From assembly GCA_903916665.1 (NCBI GenBank), contig CAIWXP010000027.1:1-5172 (forward strand): DNA of 5,172 nt. The letters are read 5' to 3'. Numbering within the stretch: the first letter of the stretch is position 1; each line of letters opens with the position of its first letter. This DNA comes from Candidatus Iainarchaeum sp. Its GTDB lineage: Archaea > Iainarchaeota > Iainarchaeia > Iainarchaeales > 0-14-0-20-30-16. A program made the translations under genes and the position numbers. The notes below the pieces were generated by a model, which saw nothing but the letters and a program-made list of their open reading frames with translations, was not told the origin of the DNA and made no database searches. Below, in pieces: positions 1 to 4,991 of this stretch.

Positions 1-170
1 AACAAATTAAAATAAACTGCTTCCATTGACATTTTTGAGTTATTTTCTGCCATTAATATGGGTACTAAAAATAATATACAGACAATAACAATAATTGTTG
101 CTTTGATTGCCCAAGACCAAAATAATCTTTTACTTGGTTTTCCTTCATATAATACCCTATCTTCTACCAT
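1..170 (-). CDS. N-terminal part of a membrane protein gene that continues beyond position 1; possibly a bacterial-PH/DUF304-like membrane-flanked family (weak)
   Basis: This gene is absent from the ORF track because the window edge truncates it. The reverse complement from ATG at 170-168 reads MVEDRVLYEGKPSKRLFWSWAIKATIIVIVCILFLVPILMAENNSKMSMEAVYFNL with no stop down to position 3. An AGGTGAT Shine-Dalgarno-like motif (complement of 177-183) sits 6 nt upstream of the ATG. A hydrophobic stretch (AIKATIIVIVCILFLVPIL) looks like a TM helix. The E-x-V-L-Y-E-G-K-P-S lead-in followed by a TM recalls DUF304/bPH_2 proteins, from memory only. Confidence 0.5.
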   Translation of the reverse strand, partial: MVEDRVLYEGKPSKRLFWSWAIKATIIVIVCILFLVPILMAENNSKMSMEAVYFNL

Positions 171-260
171 AAAAATATCACCTAATTAATAGTTAAATTA
201 TTATAATATTACTACGATCTACTTATTAATATATATTTCCCTATTATATGTGGTGATTTA
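171..260. promoter_or_regulatory. Divergent intergenic region with ribosome-binding sites for both flanking genes and AT-rich TATA-like stretches
   Basis: AGGTGAT (complement of 177-183) serves the minus-strand gene and GGTGAT (252-257, 3 nt before ATG 261) serves the plus-strand gene. TATA-like runs occur at ttataatatt (about 200-209) and ttaatatatattt (about 215-227). Exact promoter elements cannot be resolved in this AT-rich background. Confidence 0.3.
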
Positions 261-629
261 ATGAAATTTATGATTATAACATTATTTGCATTAATATTTG
301 CAACTCTAGTTTTATCTGGTTGTATTGCAAGCTGTCCAGATTTAAAAGGTGTTGAATTAAAAAATTTAGGTGACGTCTATTTTGTTACTGTTGATAACAT
401 AAAATTAGATGGGTTACAAGTTATGGGTAAAACAACCATATTGGGTGGAACACTTTGTAATAAAGGTACATTGGAAGGAGAAAATGTAAACAATATTTAT
501 TGTGATATTATATTATCAAATACAGAAATAGATTCTCAAGGAAATATAATTTCAAAAGACAAAAAAAATGCACAAATAGTATTCGATGCAAATAAAACCT
601 ATTTAGAAACTAGTTGTTTGGGAAATTAA
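261..629 (+). CDS. Small secreted or lipid-anchored protein (signal peptide with lipobox L-S-G-C); function unknown
   Basis: This is a 122-aa ORF with a GGTGAT RBS at 252-257 and a TAA stop. The N-terminus MKFMIITLFALIFATLVLSGC has a charged n-region, a hydrophobic core and a lipobox-like LSGC. The mature part is Gly/Asn/Thr-rich with four further Cys. I recognise no family. Confidence 0.7.
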   Translation: MKFMIITLFALIFATLVLSGCIASCPDLKGVELKNLGDVYFVTVDNIKLDGLQVMGKTTILGGTLCNKGTLEGENVNNIYCDIILSNTEIDSQGNIISKDKKNAQIVFDANKTYLETSCLGN

Positions 630-643
630 TTTCCCAAAACAAT
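613..643. terminator. Inverted repeat or hairpin between two convergent genes; candidate bidirectional terminator
   Basis: GGGAAATT|AATTTCCC (620-635) is a perfect 16-nt palindrome. Pairing extends outward (617-619 with 636-638, then 614-616 with 640-642) with one bulged A at 639. The repeat spans the TAA of the plus-strand gene (627-629) and ends next to the TGA of Cdc48 (643-645). No clear oligo-T tract follows on either strand. Confidence 0.3.
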
Positions 644-2841
644 CATCTAATATAATTTGTATCTTTTTCTTTTTTCTTCTCTTCACTATCTAATAAATTC
701 TTTTTAGATTCGTTTAGTTTATTTAAAGATTTTTTTAAATCTTGAATTGTTATAGGGGCACTCTTCATATTATTTGCTTCTAAAGATATTAAACCTGCTG
801 CTCTTAATATTGAACTTAAATCTGCACCAGAAAAACCATCTGTATCATGAGCAATTAATTGCAAATCATTTCTATCTTTCAATGTCATATTCTTAGACTG
901 TTTTTCTAAAATATCCAATCTACCTTTCTCATCGGATAAACCAACGTGCAATAATAAATCAATTCTTCCAGGTCTAATTACAGCAGTATCCAAATCTTCT
1001 AATTTATTTGTTGCTGCTAAAAATACAATTCCTTTTGAATTACTCATACCATCTAATTCTGTCAATAATTGATTAACAACTCTACTTGTTGTTGGATTGC
1101 TATCCATTGATCTTCTTGGTGCAATGGCATCAATTTCATCAAAGAAAACAATACAAGGTGATGCTTGACGAGCCTTTTGAAAAATATTTCTAATTGCTCT
1201 TTCACTTTCCCCTAACCATTTATTAAAAATCTCAGGACCTCTAACAGAAATAAAATTAGCTTCGCATTCGTTTGCAATTGCTTTTGCTAACATTGTTTTT
1301 CCTGTTCCTGGCGGACCATACAATAAAATTCCTTTAATTGGAGAAATACCCATTTTCTCAAAACTCTCATAGTGCTTCAAAGGCAATTCAACCATCTTTT
1401 TAATTTCGTCTTTAACATCGTCTAAGCCACCAACATCATTCCAATTAACATTGGGAATTTCTGCAAATACTTCTCTCAAAGCAGAAGGATTAACTTCTTT
1501 TAATGCATTTTGAAAATCTTCAAAATTAATTAATATTTTTTCTAATTCTTCTGGCTCAACAGCTTCCGAACTTTCTAAATTTAATTTATAATTTTTATCG
1601 TCTCTTACTCTTCTAATTGTTTGCATTGCGGATTCTCTTACCAGCGCACACAAATCAGCACCAACAAATCCTCTTGTTTGCAATGCAATGTCTTCTACCA
1701 TGCCCATAAAAAATGTTTTTTGTAATTTATCTAAAGAATAATCTGTTTTTAATGCAAATTTATTTGTTATATTTTCATTCTTTGTTTCATCCTGATCTAA
1801 TAAAGAAAATAATTCTTCCAATTGTTTTTGTTCTTCTACTAATTTATCTTCTAATTTTCCTTTTTCTTTTACTACAATCTCATTTGCAGATTTAAGTTTT
1901 TCTACCACTCTTTCAATATATTCTTTTTTAAATAATGGTCTAATTGGAGCATTTCGTGTTAATATATTTAATATTTCTATTCTACCATCTTTATCTGGTG
2001 CACCAATCTCTATTTCCCTATCAAATCTTCCTGGTCTACGTAGAGCATTATCAATTGAATTAGGCCTATTGGTAGTTGCTATAACAATGGTTTGACCTCT
2101 TGCTTCCATTCCATCCATTAAACTTAACAATTGGGCAACAACTCTTTTCTCAACGTCACCTGCAACTTCTTCTCTTATTGGTGCTATGGCATCAATTTCA
2201 TCAATAAAAATTATACTTGGATTATTATCTTGAGCTTCTTTAAATAAGTCTCTAATTTTTTGTTCTGCCCCACCAACATATCGTGACATTATTTCTGGAC
2301 CTTTAATTGTGATTATATGTGCACCAGACTCATTGGCAACTGCTTTTGCAATTAATGTTTTTCCAGTTCCTGGAGGACCAAATAATAAAACACCTTTTGG
2401 AGGCTCAATACCTAAATGATTAAATAATTCTGGATGTCTTAAAGGAAATTCAATCATTTCTTTTATTTTGCTTAATTGTTTTTTTATTCCTCCAATATCT
2501 TCATAGGATACTCTTGCAACATTGGCATTGTTTGGATCAACGGGTTCACTTAAAACTTCTACTTCTGTTTCATCACTAATAATAACCGGGCCCTTGGGTT
2601 GTGAGCTTTGAACAATTAATGTAATTGGATTTCCAAAAACAGCAAACATTACTTCTTCGCCAGTAATCATTGGTTTCATTAAAAAATTCTTTTTAATTAA
2701 TCTTGTATACTGGCCCAACTGTGCTTGAACTTCTTGAATTGGAGCAAAGGTAATTTTTTTACAGGGTAATAAAACTGCTTTTTTAACTACTACCCCATCA
2801 CCTATAGACACACCACAATTTTTTCTTGTGAAACTATCCAC
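643..2841 (-). CDS. cdc48: Cdc48/VAT/p97-type double-ring AAA+ ATPase: second half of the N domain plus D1 plus D2. The GTG start at 2841 is probably an ORF-caller artefact, and the frame continues upstream to 3045 through a TGA.
   Basis: There are two AAA+ modules. D1 has Walker A GPPGTGKT (aa 155-162), Walker B IIFIDEID, pore loop MSRYVGG and [14 protein letters not shown]2 has Walker A GPPGTGKT (aa 509-516), Walker B IVFFDEID, pore loop FNKWLGESE and IRPGRID. The linker motifs SYEDIGG and [10 protein letters not shown] are typical of Cdc48/VAT. N-terminal residues [20 protein letters not shown] match the second half of the VAT double-psi barrel, followed by a beta-clam-like segment. The stop is TGA at 645-643. 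Confidence 0.95.
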
Positions 2842-2880
2842 TCTTATTATTCTTTCTCCTTCTTCACTTGGTCTGCCGGG

Positions 2881-3045
2881 TCAAATTTTTGCCAAACTAT
2901 CTTTTTTTCCTTTTATTAAAATATAATCATCATGGGATAGCCCTAAAACGTTACGAGTTTCATTATCAATGGCAGCAACTTTCTTTCCCACTAAATTAGG
3001 ATCTGCTTCCATTATTTTCAATGTAGTACTTTTTTCACTTGCCAT
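2881..3045 (-). CDS. cdc48: N-terminal fragment of the same Cdc48/VAT gene (first half of the double-psi beta-barrel N domain), ending at an in-frame TGA
   Basis: The ORF-track entry 2881-3081 reads ...TLKIMEADPNLVGKKVAAIDNETRNVLGLSHDDYILIKGKKDSLAKI. This parallels the VAT N-terminus ILRVAEANSTDPGMSRVRLDESSRRLLDAEIGDVVEIEKVRKTVGRV, recalled from memory. I prefer ATG at 3045 (MASEKSTT...) because GTGAT (complement of 3050-3054) lies 4 nt upstream. ATG 3081 has no comparable RBS and would add 12 residues absent from homologues. The frame is identical to that of 643-2841. Confidence 0.75.
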   Translation of the reverse strand: MASEKSTTLKIMEADPNLVGKKVAAIDNETRNVLGLSHDDYILIKGKKDSLAKI

Positions 3046-3094
3046 AGGAATCACTGTAAACTTTTGTATCTTTGTATTCATCCATTAAACATAT

Positions 3095-3490
3095 TTAATT
3101 TTTAGAATTAAAATTCATAAAGAAAAATGTTAACCAACCCATAAAGAATGATACTGCAATGTGTATATAGGGTGTACTTAATAGAGATGAAAATATCCCC
3201 GATGTTTGTGTATAGTAAATCCAATAGGCCATATAATAACCCAAATATAACATTATCAATAGTATTAAACCGATATAAATTTCTGCAAAATTAAAATCAA
3301 TTTCTTTTTTAAAATATTCAAAAATTAAATATCCAAAAATAAAAAATGCAATTATAAATAAATGATTTGTCCAGGGTGAGTTTATATCAAATATTAATTT
3401 TGTTGCGCTTAAAACATATAACAAAATATAATTTACAACGAAAATTGCTGCAAAAATTAAAATATTCTTTTTAAGATCTTTTTTTGACAT
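3095..3490 (-). CDS. Small integral membrane protein with four predicted TM helices; family unknown
   Basis: This is a 131-aa ORF with a TAA stop. A GGGGGT RBS-like motif (complement of 3498-3503) lies 7 nt upstream of ATG 3490, inside the end of the upstream gene. The lysine-rich N-terminus MSKKDLKK is followed by four hydrophobic segments at about aa 9-29, 43-60, 69-93 and 108-127, rich in Phe/Tyr/Ile. The gene overlaps the upstream CDS by 20 nt. Confidence 0.7.
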   Translation of the reverse strand: MSKKDLKKNILIFAAIFVVNYILLYVLSATKLIFDINSPWTNHLFIIAFFIFGYLIFEYFKKEIDFNFAEIYIGLILLIMLYLGYYMAYWIYYTQTSGIFSSLLSTPYIHIAVSFFMGWLTFFFMNFNSKN

Positions 3491-4715
3491 TTAAATTACC
3501 CCCATCATTAGCTTTTACATAGCTATCTATCTCTTCATAGGTTGTTGCACAACCACTATTTTTTATTGTGTATAATAATGATTTCTTATAATCTAATCCA
3601 TCATATTTTTTAAAATATCCCTCTTTAATTGCAAAGGCAATCAAATCAACACTTCTTATTACAGAAATATTTTTTAATATAGCATTAACTTGATTTAATT
3701 TTATTTTGTCATAGGATACTTTTTCTTTATAACGTGATTCCATCAAATCATGTAACTTTAAAGGATCTTCAATTAACCAACGTGTAATAATTTCATCAAT
3801 TACTAAAACAGCATTGTTAGCTTTGGCAAAAGCTATGCATTCCAATTCTCCTTTTTGCAATACTTCTAATTTACCATGTTTTGTATAAAATACACTATTA
3901 CACAATTCTTCAATATTACCATTCTTAGGAACCTCTTCTTTTTTAATTAAAGTAAATATTTTTTTATTTATTAAATATTCATATTGTATCCCTACCCATC
4001 CATAGCGAACTACTTTTTGTTGAATATCTATTGTTTCATTGTGCACTGCTTCAGTTAAATATAAATTTACCGTTGGATTTCTTTTTTTAAATTCTTCAAA
4101 GAATTCAACTAAGCCAGTATTTCCAATTGAAATCAAAGAACTTGAATCAAAAATTAAATTTCTATTTTCTTTTAATAGTGATTCTACTTTCTTTGTTAAA
4201 ATATCTTCAGGCAATTTTTGATTATGCGTTTGTGTATCTGCCAGATAGGTTTGTAAATCATAGACATTAACTGCCAATACTTCATTTATCTTTGTTGTAG
4301 AAAACCCCATAGAATATAGTCTTGCACCAACTTTTACTCTTCCTTTCTTTTCAATATTTTTTAAATAGTTATTAAACTCAGAATTATCCTTTTCAAACAA
4401 ATGAATAAAAACATTTAAATCGTTTTTTAATGAATCTTTATTTTGACTTTTTAATTTATCAAAAAATGCTAATATTCTTTCCTTATCTCTTTTCCAAGAT
4501 TTTGATTCGATTAAATGATTCTGTGTTAATGATTTATATAAACAATAAACTATAACCGACAAATATAATCCAGAGAAATCTCCATTTATTGCGCAATACT
4601 CTGTCAACTCATTGGATGTCCTTTTCAAAGGCACAATATTTTGTCTTTGAAAATCTTGAACAATTAATTCTAATAATTTTATGTAGCCTTTCTGATTCGC
4701 CAAATTAATATCCAT
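3471..4715 (-). CDS. Multidomain protein: unrecognised helical N-terminal region, an HTH-like (UPF0175/COG2886-like) segment, and a C-terminal PIN-like domain of the COG2405/DUF3368 type
   Basis: The ORF track starts at GTG 4724, but that GTG lies inside the RBS. GGTG (complement of 4722-4725) sits 6 nt upstream of ATG 4715, giving MDINLANQ... (414 aa). The stop is TAA. The PIN-like signature, in ORF-track numbering, is NLIFDSSSLISIGNTGLVEFF (aa 189-209), LYLTEAVHNE (aa 221-230), KGELECIAFAKANNAVLVIDE (aa 291-311) and ISVIRSVDLIAFAIKEGYF (aa 353-371). This matches the pattern D-[ST]-S-P-L-I...P..V..E...GE.E.I.LA......L..DD...G....L..A...G that I recall for COG2405 proteins. The HTH-like segment is VGARLYSMGFSTTKINEVLAVNVYDLQTYL (aa 132-161). 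Confidence 0.8.
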   Translation of the reverse strand: MDINLANQKGYIKLLELIVQDFQRQNIVPLKRTSNELTEYCAINGDFSGLYLSVIVYCLYKSLTQNHLIESKSWKRDKERILAFFDKLKSQNKDSLKNDLNVFIHLFEKDNSEFNNYLKNIEKKGRVKVGARLYSMGFSTTKINEVLAVNVYDLQTYLADTQTHNQKLPEDILTKKVESLLKENRNLIFDSSSLISIGNTGLVEFFEEFKKRNPTVNLYLTEAVHNETIDIQQKVVRYGWVGIQYEYLINKKIFTLIKKEEVPKNGNIEELCNSVFYTKHGKLEVLQKGELECIAFAKANNAVLVIDEIITRWLIEDPLKLHDLMESRYKEKVSYDKIKLNQVNAILKNISVIRSVDLIAFAIKEGYFKKYDGLDYKKSLLYTIKNSGCATTYEEIDSYVKANDGGNLNVKKRS

Positions 4716-4724
4716 AATAAACAC

Positions 4725-4919
4725 CGTAACTTATATTAAAAAATGTAAAAGTATTTTTATACTTATACTATATATAAGGGATTTCCGTTAAAATTTTCAA
4801 GAAAACCTTATAAAGCTTATGTATCCTAAATATAATAGACTTTTTCATTAAAAAAGACATTTTTTTAGTTTTTTTATTTAGTAAATAGATTTTCTTTTTA
4901 AAAAAGAAAACCCTAAAAA
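4725..4919. promoter_or_regulatory. Divergent intergenic region holding the likely promoter of the minus-strand three-gene block and the promoter of tRNA-Asp
   Basis: This is a 195-nt AT-rich spacer. On the minus strand, TTATATATA (complement of 4768-4776) lies about 53 nt upstream of ATG 4715 and is preceded by CGGAAAT, a possible BRE/TATA pair. For the tRNA, the TATA-like runs tttatttagtaaata (4873-4887) and ctttttaaaaaag (4894-4906) lie 15-45 nt upstream of 4920. These assignments are tentative. Confidence 0.3.
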
Positions 4920-4991
4920 GCCCCGATGGTCTAATGGTTATGATCGACCCCTGTCACGGGTCAGATCCGGGTTCAATTCCCGGTCGAGGCG
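4920..4991 (+). tRNA. tRNA-Asp (anticodon GTC), 72 nt, no intron, CCA not encoded
   Basis: I folded the cloverleaf by hand. The acceptor stem is GCCCCGA/TCGAGGC, with six Watson-Crick pairs and a C4-A69 mismatch. The D arm is GTCT-AATGGTTA-TGAT. The anticodon stem GACCC/GGGTC carries the loop CTGTCAC, giving GTC = Asp. The variable region is AGAT, and the T arm is CCGGG-TTCAATT-CCCGG. The discriminator is G at 4991, followed by TTTACA. The segment is a GC-rich island in AT-rich sequence. Confidence 0.9.

Follow-up and report, generated by a model that had tools for sequence, protein, structure and literature searches.

An in-frame TGA at a conserved tryptophan position of a Cdc48/VAT gene on an AT-rich archaeal contig

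The Cdc48/VAT gene carried by a metagenomic contig from an uncultured, AT-rich and probably DPANN-like archaeon is interrupted by a single in-frame TGA at a conserved tryptophan, and we conclude that this is probably a real and recent TGG-to-TGA nonsense allele in an organism that uses the standard genetic code. The evidence points to a common kind of event, the TGG-to-TGA nonsense substitution. That the same gene closes on a normal TGA stop argues for an ordinary nonsense change, or for an assembly error, rather than for a new code; between these two we judge a consensus error less likely than a real allele. The window referred to throughout is the whole stretch of DNA that was analysed, which is a complete contig of 5172 nt with a GC content of 28%.

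The interrupted gene and its homologues

The gene lies on the minus strand in parts of 66, 13 and 732 codons, all in one shared frame and split only by the TGA (Table 1), around which the minus-strand letters are GCA AAA ATT TGA CCC GGC AGA CCA AGT, that is, AKI-stop-PGRPS. The ORF caller entered the 66-aa ORF separately (3081..2881 including its stop) and took the GTG at 2841 as the start of a 732-aa ORF (2841..643). An earlier note on this DNA had described the interruption, and its coordinates, frame arithmetic and translation all proved exact on re-reading. A frameshift or indel was considered and rejected, the frame being the same on both sides of the TGA.

Table 1. Coordinates of the parts of the interrupted Cdc48/VAT gene in the window
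Feature	Position	Strand	Description
Cdc48 codons 1-66	2884..3081	-	N-terminal tail and first part of the CDC48_N double-psi barrel
In-frame TGA (opal)	2881..2883	-	At conserved Trp67 of CDC48_N; 3' context TGA-C
13 bridging codons, PGRPSEEGERIIR	2842..2880	-	Cdc48 homology resumes past the TGA
Rest of Cdc48	646..2841	-	Second part of CDC48_N, CDC48_2, D1 AAA, inserted helical segment, D2 AAA, C-terminal tail ...TNYIR
Natural Cdc48 terminator TGA	643..645	-	Context TGA-T; adjoins the conserved C-terminus NYIR

Bridging the TGA yields a conceptual product of 799 aa (812 aa as queried) that reads ...SLAKIWPGRPSEEGER... across the internal TGA site and aligns end to end with archaeal Cdc48 proteins, at a coverage of 98-99% and with 72-77% identity to the closest, which are metagenomic; identity to the named Cdc48 proteins of Thermococcales, Archaeoglobales and Diapherotrites is 42-50%. 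Its domains are those of a CDC48 family AAA ATPase: CDC48_N (PF02359) at residues 20-102 (E = 1.8e-22), CDC48_2 (PF02933) at residues 128-182 (E = 2e-11), and a tandem of AAA domains (two stretches matching PF00004, E = 4.8e-94) with two AAA_lid_3 domains found by Pfam. The N-domain of VAT (1cz4) matches it with E = 1.2e-17. The Walker A motif GPPGTGKT occurs twice, accompanied by the Walker B motifs IFIDEIDA and VFFDEIDA, and the alignments show these columns to be invariant or nearly so. The gene thus shares with archaeal Cdc48/VAT, as represented by Thermoplasma VAT (PDB 1cz4, 5g4f), CDC48_N, CDC48_2, two AAA domains and a Tyr-containing C-terminal tail, and differs in that its frame is interrupted at Trp67, where VAT itself has Tyr; every relative encodes Cdc48 in a single uninterrupted frame. 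Alignment to homologues revealed no further stop or frameshift in the conceptual product, and the impression given in the earlier note, of a gene not visibly decayed, holds at this level of coverage.

A Lys/Glu-rich helical insertion of about 85 residues separates the D1 AAA core from its lid (Cdc48 residues ~395-480; window about 1560-1820, minus strand). It is common to the homologues P0002-P0006 and P0012-P0013 and to the Cdc48 proteins of Thermococcales and Archaeoglobales; P0007-P0010, otherwise close, and P0016-P0018 lack it.

The residue opposite the TGA was tryptophan in all 21 homologues of a first alignment, and in 77 of the 78 of a wider one, where the remaining sequence has Leu and none has Cys. 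The earlier note had expected that the TGA would fall opposite the Tyr of VAT and that many archaeal Cdc48 proteins would have Trp there; both are borne out, VAT reading ...GRVYRARPED... and another solved archaeal Cdc48 N-domain, 7dg9, having Trp. The alignment of the conceptual product that the earlier note had proposed therefore assigns the column to Trp.

At the nucleotide level, the orthologous codon is TGG on all six independent contigs on which it was read, four of them retrieved by exact-protein look-ups (L002, L003, L009 and L010) and two by a scan of JGI metagenomes with a degenerate TGR pattern (L011 and L012). A further pair, L004 and L013, are stretches of one contig that is the same as L003 at the site, and stands outside this count. 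The JGI scan, for K-x-W/stop-P-G-R-[PA]-S-E-E-G with TGR, returned three stretches representing two independent contigs, all with TGG and none with TGA. In L002 and L012 the site reads ATT TGG CCC GGA AGA CCA AGT, against ATT TGA CCC GGC AGA CCA AGT in the window; at the Trp67 codon the window differs from its orthologues by a single G-to-A transition in the third position.

Conservation is undiminished on either side of the TGA. The first 66 codons have 59-78% identity to close homologues, similar to the rest of the N-domain, and the 13 bridging codons have 77-85% identity to the seven closest (P0002-P0007 and P0010). An old pseudogene was rejected as an explanation on the ground that the N-terminal 66 codons are as conserved as the remaining N-domain.

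The reading of UGA in this organism

A stop codon lying exactly on a column so dominated by Trp, in a very AT-rich genome and in a gene that is otherwise intact, invites the interpretation that this organism decodes UGA as Trp, whether throughout the genome (as in code 4) or in an ambiguous manner, with context deciding between Trp and stop. The coincidence with Trp adds to this, being only 1.5-18% probable under random nonsense mutation. We nevertheless regard decoding as Trp as very improbable, and the evidence against it comes from the gene itself, from the codon usage of the contig and from the relatives.

First, TGA closes this same gene at its conserved C-terminus. The terminal TGA stands immediately past ...DTNYIR; exactly NYIR ends 11 homologues, and others stop two residues beyond the same Tyr (YIG, YFG, YVR). 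That this TGA is no error is shown by L014 (ERZ18626762), an independent contig that comes from a different sample and matches window 33-751 at 100% identity, terminal TGA included. Read as sense, it would add WLFWEINFPNN before a TAG and run into the convergent gene, in agreement with the earlier note, which had placed the terminator at 645-643 with LFWEINFPNN and a TAG following. The stretch whose absence beside the C-terminal peptide ...DTNYIR would mark the TGA as a stop is NYIRWLFWEINFPNN. Among orthologues the Cdc48 terminator varies, being TGA in L002, TAA in L003 and TAG in L009 and L010.

Second, TGG outnumbers TGA ten to one in the window. The other 10 Trp codons are all TGG (eight in complete genes and two in the partial minus-strand ORF at 1-170), and the three other complete genes all end in TAA, as had been counted before. 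This is so despite a strong preference for A in the third position, A-ending codons making up 83% of the purine-ending codons in two-fold sets and 88% of those in four-fold sets in the contig; given that bias, the probability of finding at most one TGA in 11 Trp codons is ~2e-7 if TGA and TGG were synonymous. The codon-usage test excludes an established UGA=Trp reassignment. A code of the table 4 type would place TGA at many Trp columns, and here it occupies one of 11 Trp positions in the 5.2 kb of this organism.

Third, the syntenic relatives use the standard code. TGA terminates five of their 38 genes; 70 Trp codons in these loci are TGG, and in-frame TGA codons, a count of which had been suggested as a check, number zero. 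Coding density under table 11 is ~90%, and a Codetta-like test for same-strand ORF pairs joined by TGA found none in the relatives, just antisense or off-frame noise. Use of TGA as a terminator, by Cdc48 itself as well as by those five genes, is likewise unlike table 4 codes, in which TGA is unused for that purpose. A tRNA with anticodon UCA, which had also been proposed as a thing to look for, was absent from the contig and all related loci, in which the scan recovered tRNA-Asp (GTC) and one tRNA-Ile (TAT); tRNA-Trp itself was unsampled among these loci, which makes the tRNA comparison a weak control.

The prior for such a code in archaea is also very low. A single release factor, aRF1, reads all three stops in archaea, which have no dispensable RF2. 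PMC13462651 reports UGA-to-Trp reassignment in four bacterial phyla only; no new code for archaea was validated among the 2309 species of a Codetta screen, and UGA=Trp arose in very AT-rich bacterial genomes (PMC8629427). We found no archaeal UGA=Trp code reported in the literature surveyed.

Set beside the known systems, the window resembles the table 4 organisms (Mycoplasmatales, Entomoplasmatales and reduced insect endosymbionts) in its AT-richness and in having TGA at a conserved Trp. It differs from them in that its TGA also terminates the same gene, in that TGG dominates 10:1, in that its relatives use TGA stops, and in that no tRNA-UCA is seen. Context-dependent stops such as those of Condylostoma and Blastocrithidia (tRNA-Trp with a 4-bp anticodon stem; PMC13092985) would let UGA be Trp internally and a stop terminally, and a context-dependent or ambiguous UGA is the only recoding model compatible with the contig. 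Such ambiguous-stop systems are known only in eukaryotes, with bacterial candidates proposed, and they have many genes with internal UGA, unlike the window with its one TGA in 11 Trp positions and its relatives with none. An early or ambiguous capture, in which internal UGA would be read as Trp, for instance through competition between a modified tRNA-Trp and aRF1, while UGA still terminated at gene ends, is compatible with the 5.2-kb contig because the contig has neither a tRNA-Trp gene nor the aRF1 gene; we give it only a very slight chance. If true, UGA=Trp here would be the first in Archaea and a convergent codon capture in an AT-rich reduced genome.

How surprising, then, is the coincidence with Trp? 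Among the single-base routes to a stop in Cdc48, 1.5-5% fall on Trp codons (according to the weight given to transitions), and 18% of the transition routes do. Since few nonsense routes hit Trp codons, the coincidence lends some likelihood to a decoding explanation, with a likelihood ratio of roughly 5-50 in its direction. The coincidence is real but moderate, and is the expected signature of G-to-A transitions. Most in-frame stops of pseudogenes are products of transitions in codons such as TGG and so look like UGA=Trp, and TGG-to-TGA nonsense mutations are known to produce false UGA=Trp calls when a genetic code is inferred (PMC8629427). The opal nonsense changes described at Trp codons of pseudogenes or strain variants (Shulgina and Eddy 2021, PMC8629427) share with the window a single G-to-A change, a kept frame, a conserved Trp and an otherwise intact gene; we see no sequence difference between a recent opal pseudogene or variant and the case here.

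Two lessons follow for similar finds. A stop at a conserved Trp is a G-to-A signature in AT-biased genomes, and alone it says little about the genetic code; and even a 5-kb contig offers quick internal controls, in the gene's own terminator and in the TGG:TGA ratio as compared with the A-ending bias.

A nonsense allele and its alternatives

The earlier note had left three hypotheses standing: (a) a recent TGG-to-TGA nonsense mutation or sequencing error, (b) UGA read as Trp, and (c) a genuinely split gene. The first is supported, by the single substitution, the TGG of the orthologues and the standard code. The second is contradicted by the terminal TGA, the 10:1 ratio and the standard code of the syntenic relatives, and the third is not supported, in that the break falls inside CDC48_N, a split would cost 13 conserved codons, and the gene is whole in every relative.

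We propose that, in an AT-rich uncultured archaeon with the standard code, one G-to-A transition converted the Trp67 codon from TGG to TGA, a change of the sort that AT-biased mutation tends to produce. With the rest of the gene intact, the change is likely to be recent. Termination at the premature opal stop, 66 codons in, would free the first 66 residues, a piece of the N-domain barrel. Should the allele be real, any full-length Cdc48 would probably come from passive, low-level misreading of the UGA by the normal tRNA-Trp (anticodon CCA); alternatively, the gene may be a fresh Cdc48 pseudogene in one strain. Of the stop codons, UGA leaks most in the bacterial and eukaryotic systems studied, and UGA followed by C is a weaker termination context in bacteria and eukaryotes. 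In the window C follows the internal TGA, and T follows the terminal one. PMC8136774 and PMC10573299 place tRNA-Trp among the near-cognate tRNAs that decode UGA. Because misreading by tRNA-Trp would restore the wild-type residue, this may be the least harmful nonsense change possible, and because TGG-to-TGA alone gives a wild-type readthrough product, we infer that such alleles should persist longest among nonsense changes. Against a nonsense allele, Cdc48 is a conserved and possibly single-copy unfoldase, and selection should act against an interruption of its gene.

The alternative within hypothesis (a) is that the organism has TGG, and that the A at 2881 arose as a consensus mistake or as the assembler's choice of a minor-variant path in a mixed-strain, low-coverage population. 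In keeping with this, only one contig is on record with the TGA allele, the Cdc48 gene is otherwise perfect, and other assemblies show a fragmented, heterogeneous population, in which one contig (L008) has two differing sites and another (L001) diverges completely inside the neighbouring gene. Exact-product look-ups with the 66-aa and the 732-aa products found neither on any other contig. The contigs that overlap the window stop short of the site: L001 and L008, which carry the neighbouring gene, both end at window 2934, inside the His50 codon and 51 nt upstream of the TGA, and L014 and L015 reach only the 3' end of the Cdc48 gene. We nonetheless think an error or minor-variant path unlikely. 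The overlaps of the contig with four others agree at 99.8-100% identity, which speaks for its general accuracy; a short-read assembler accepts only k-mers seen repeatedly, and we estimate that a stop-creating substitution in a consensus is rarer than a segregating variant.

Two wider searches bear on the record of the allele only within their reach. A protein word-index search with a 164-aa N-domain query gave 38 candidates, with one match at 66% identity, and missed P0001 despite its 100% identity over 84 residues. A GTDB scan with the conceptual protein and six peptide patterns gave three distant bacterial AAA proteins and no archaeal relative. Neither of these negative results implies absence.

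A functional split or restart is improbable. Under such a reading translation would stop at the TGA and begin again at GTG 2841 or later, producing a truncated Cdc48 with or without the 66-aa piece as a subunit. An in-frame GTG does lie 13 codons downstream, with AAGGAG 14 nt upstream of it, and VAT lacking its N-domain remains an active unfoldase. Yet the AAGGAG merely encodes the conserved EEGE and its spacing is long, and a restart would leave out the 13 conserved bridging codons. As for a split, the break falls in the middle of CDC48_N, at the boundary neither of a domain nor of a half-barrel (residues 13-57 and 58-101 are the parts matched by the solved half-barrel peptides), and none is found among the relatives. 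A Nanoarchaeum-type split gene would break at a domain boundary, with a start signal for each part and the same break in relatives; here the two parts are contiguous and in frame, with one codon between them.

Programmed, site-specific recoding of this single UGA, by regulated readthrough or by insertion of selenocysteine, has hardly any probability in our estimate. The 3' neighbour of the TGA is the C mentioned above, which would suit readthrough, and UGA does specify Sec in some archaeal lineages; Sec and Pyl are the only demonstrated cases of readthrough in archaea (PMC8211752). However, no orthologue has a stop or Cys at the column, and the codons there are all TGG. No stable RNA structure is predicted downstream, the 131 nt around and after the TGA folding no better than shuffled sequences (z = 0.24). 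Selenocysteine was rejected for want of Cys in the column; moreover, an Rfam search, informative on SECIS elements only as far as its models cover them, gave no match, and the 3' UTR of Cdc48 is only 13 nt, followed by the convergent gene.

Neighbouring genes and related loci

Upstream of Cdc48, window 3095-4991 holds a tRNA-Asp (GTC), a gene of ~410 aa and a gene for a 131-aa multi-pass membrane protein, and the order of these with Cdc48 is kept in L002, L003, L004 and L009. Relative to L002, the ~410-aa protein has 60% identity and the 131-aa membrane protein 52%; Pfam gave no match for either. The longer gene was called as a 417-aa ORF, and its real start is probably the ATG at 4715 (MDINL...), as in L002.

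Downstream, a 122-aa ORF on the plus strand (window 261-629) begins with a lipoprotein-like signal (MKFMIITLFALIFATLVLSGC...) and converges on Cdc48 across a 13-nt gap; in its place the relatives have a bPH_2 gene. Beyond it, a partial minus-strand ORF (MVEDRVLYEGKPSKRLFWSW...) at window 1-170 runs off the left contig end. Both the 122-aa ORF and this partial ORF are 100% identical in L014 and L015, which come from other samples.

The related loci also carry a tRNA-Ile with anticodon TAT (L002:15324-15397), an intein-containing (LAGLIDADG) DUF87 ATPase of 1299 aa (L003:685-4584) and, near Cdc48, an IS605 OrfB / Cas12f-like TnpB element (L010:3803-4888).

Up to the end that they share at window 2934, L001 (ERZ18625396) is 100% identical to the window and L008 (ERZ27313081) has two mismatches. 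The shared end could mark a branch of the assembly graph where strain variation sets in at 2933, or a common coverage gap if the read sets overlap. Identity of L001 to the window extends over 2934-4099 and then gives way to complete divergence inside the 417-aa gene, leaving a 221-aa truncated version; its unrelated 5' part (L001:1-292) has no similarity to any fetched locus. L001 represents either a rearranged strain or a chimeric contig, and it is the arrangement in the window that agrees with the relatives.
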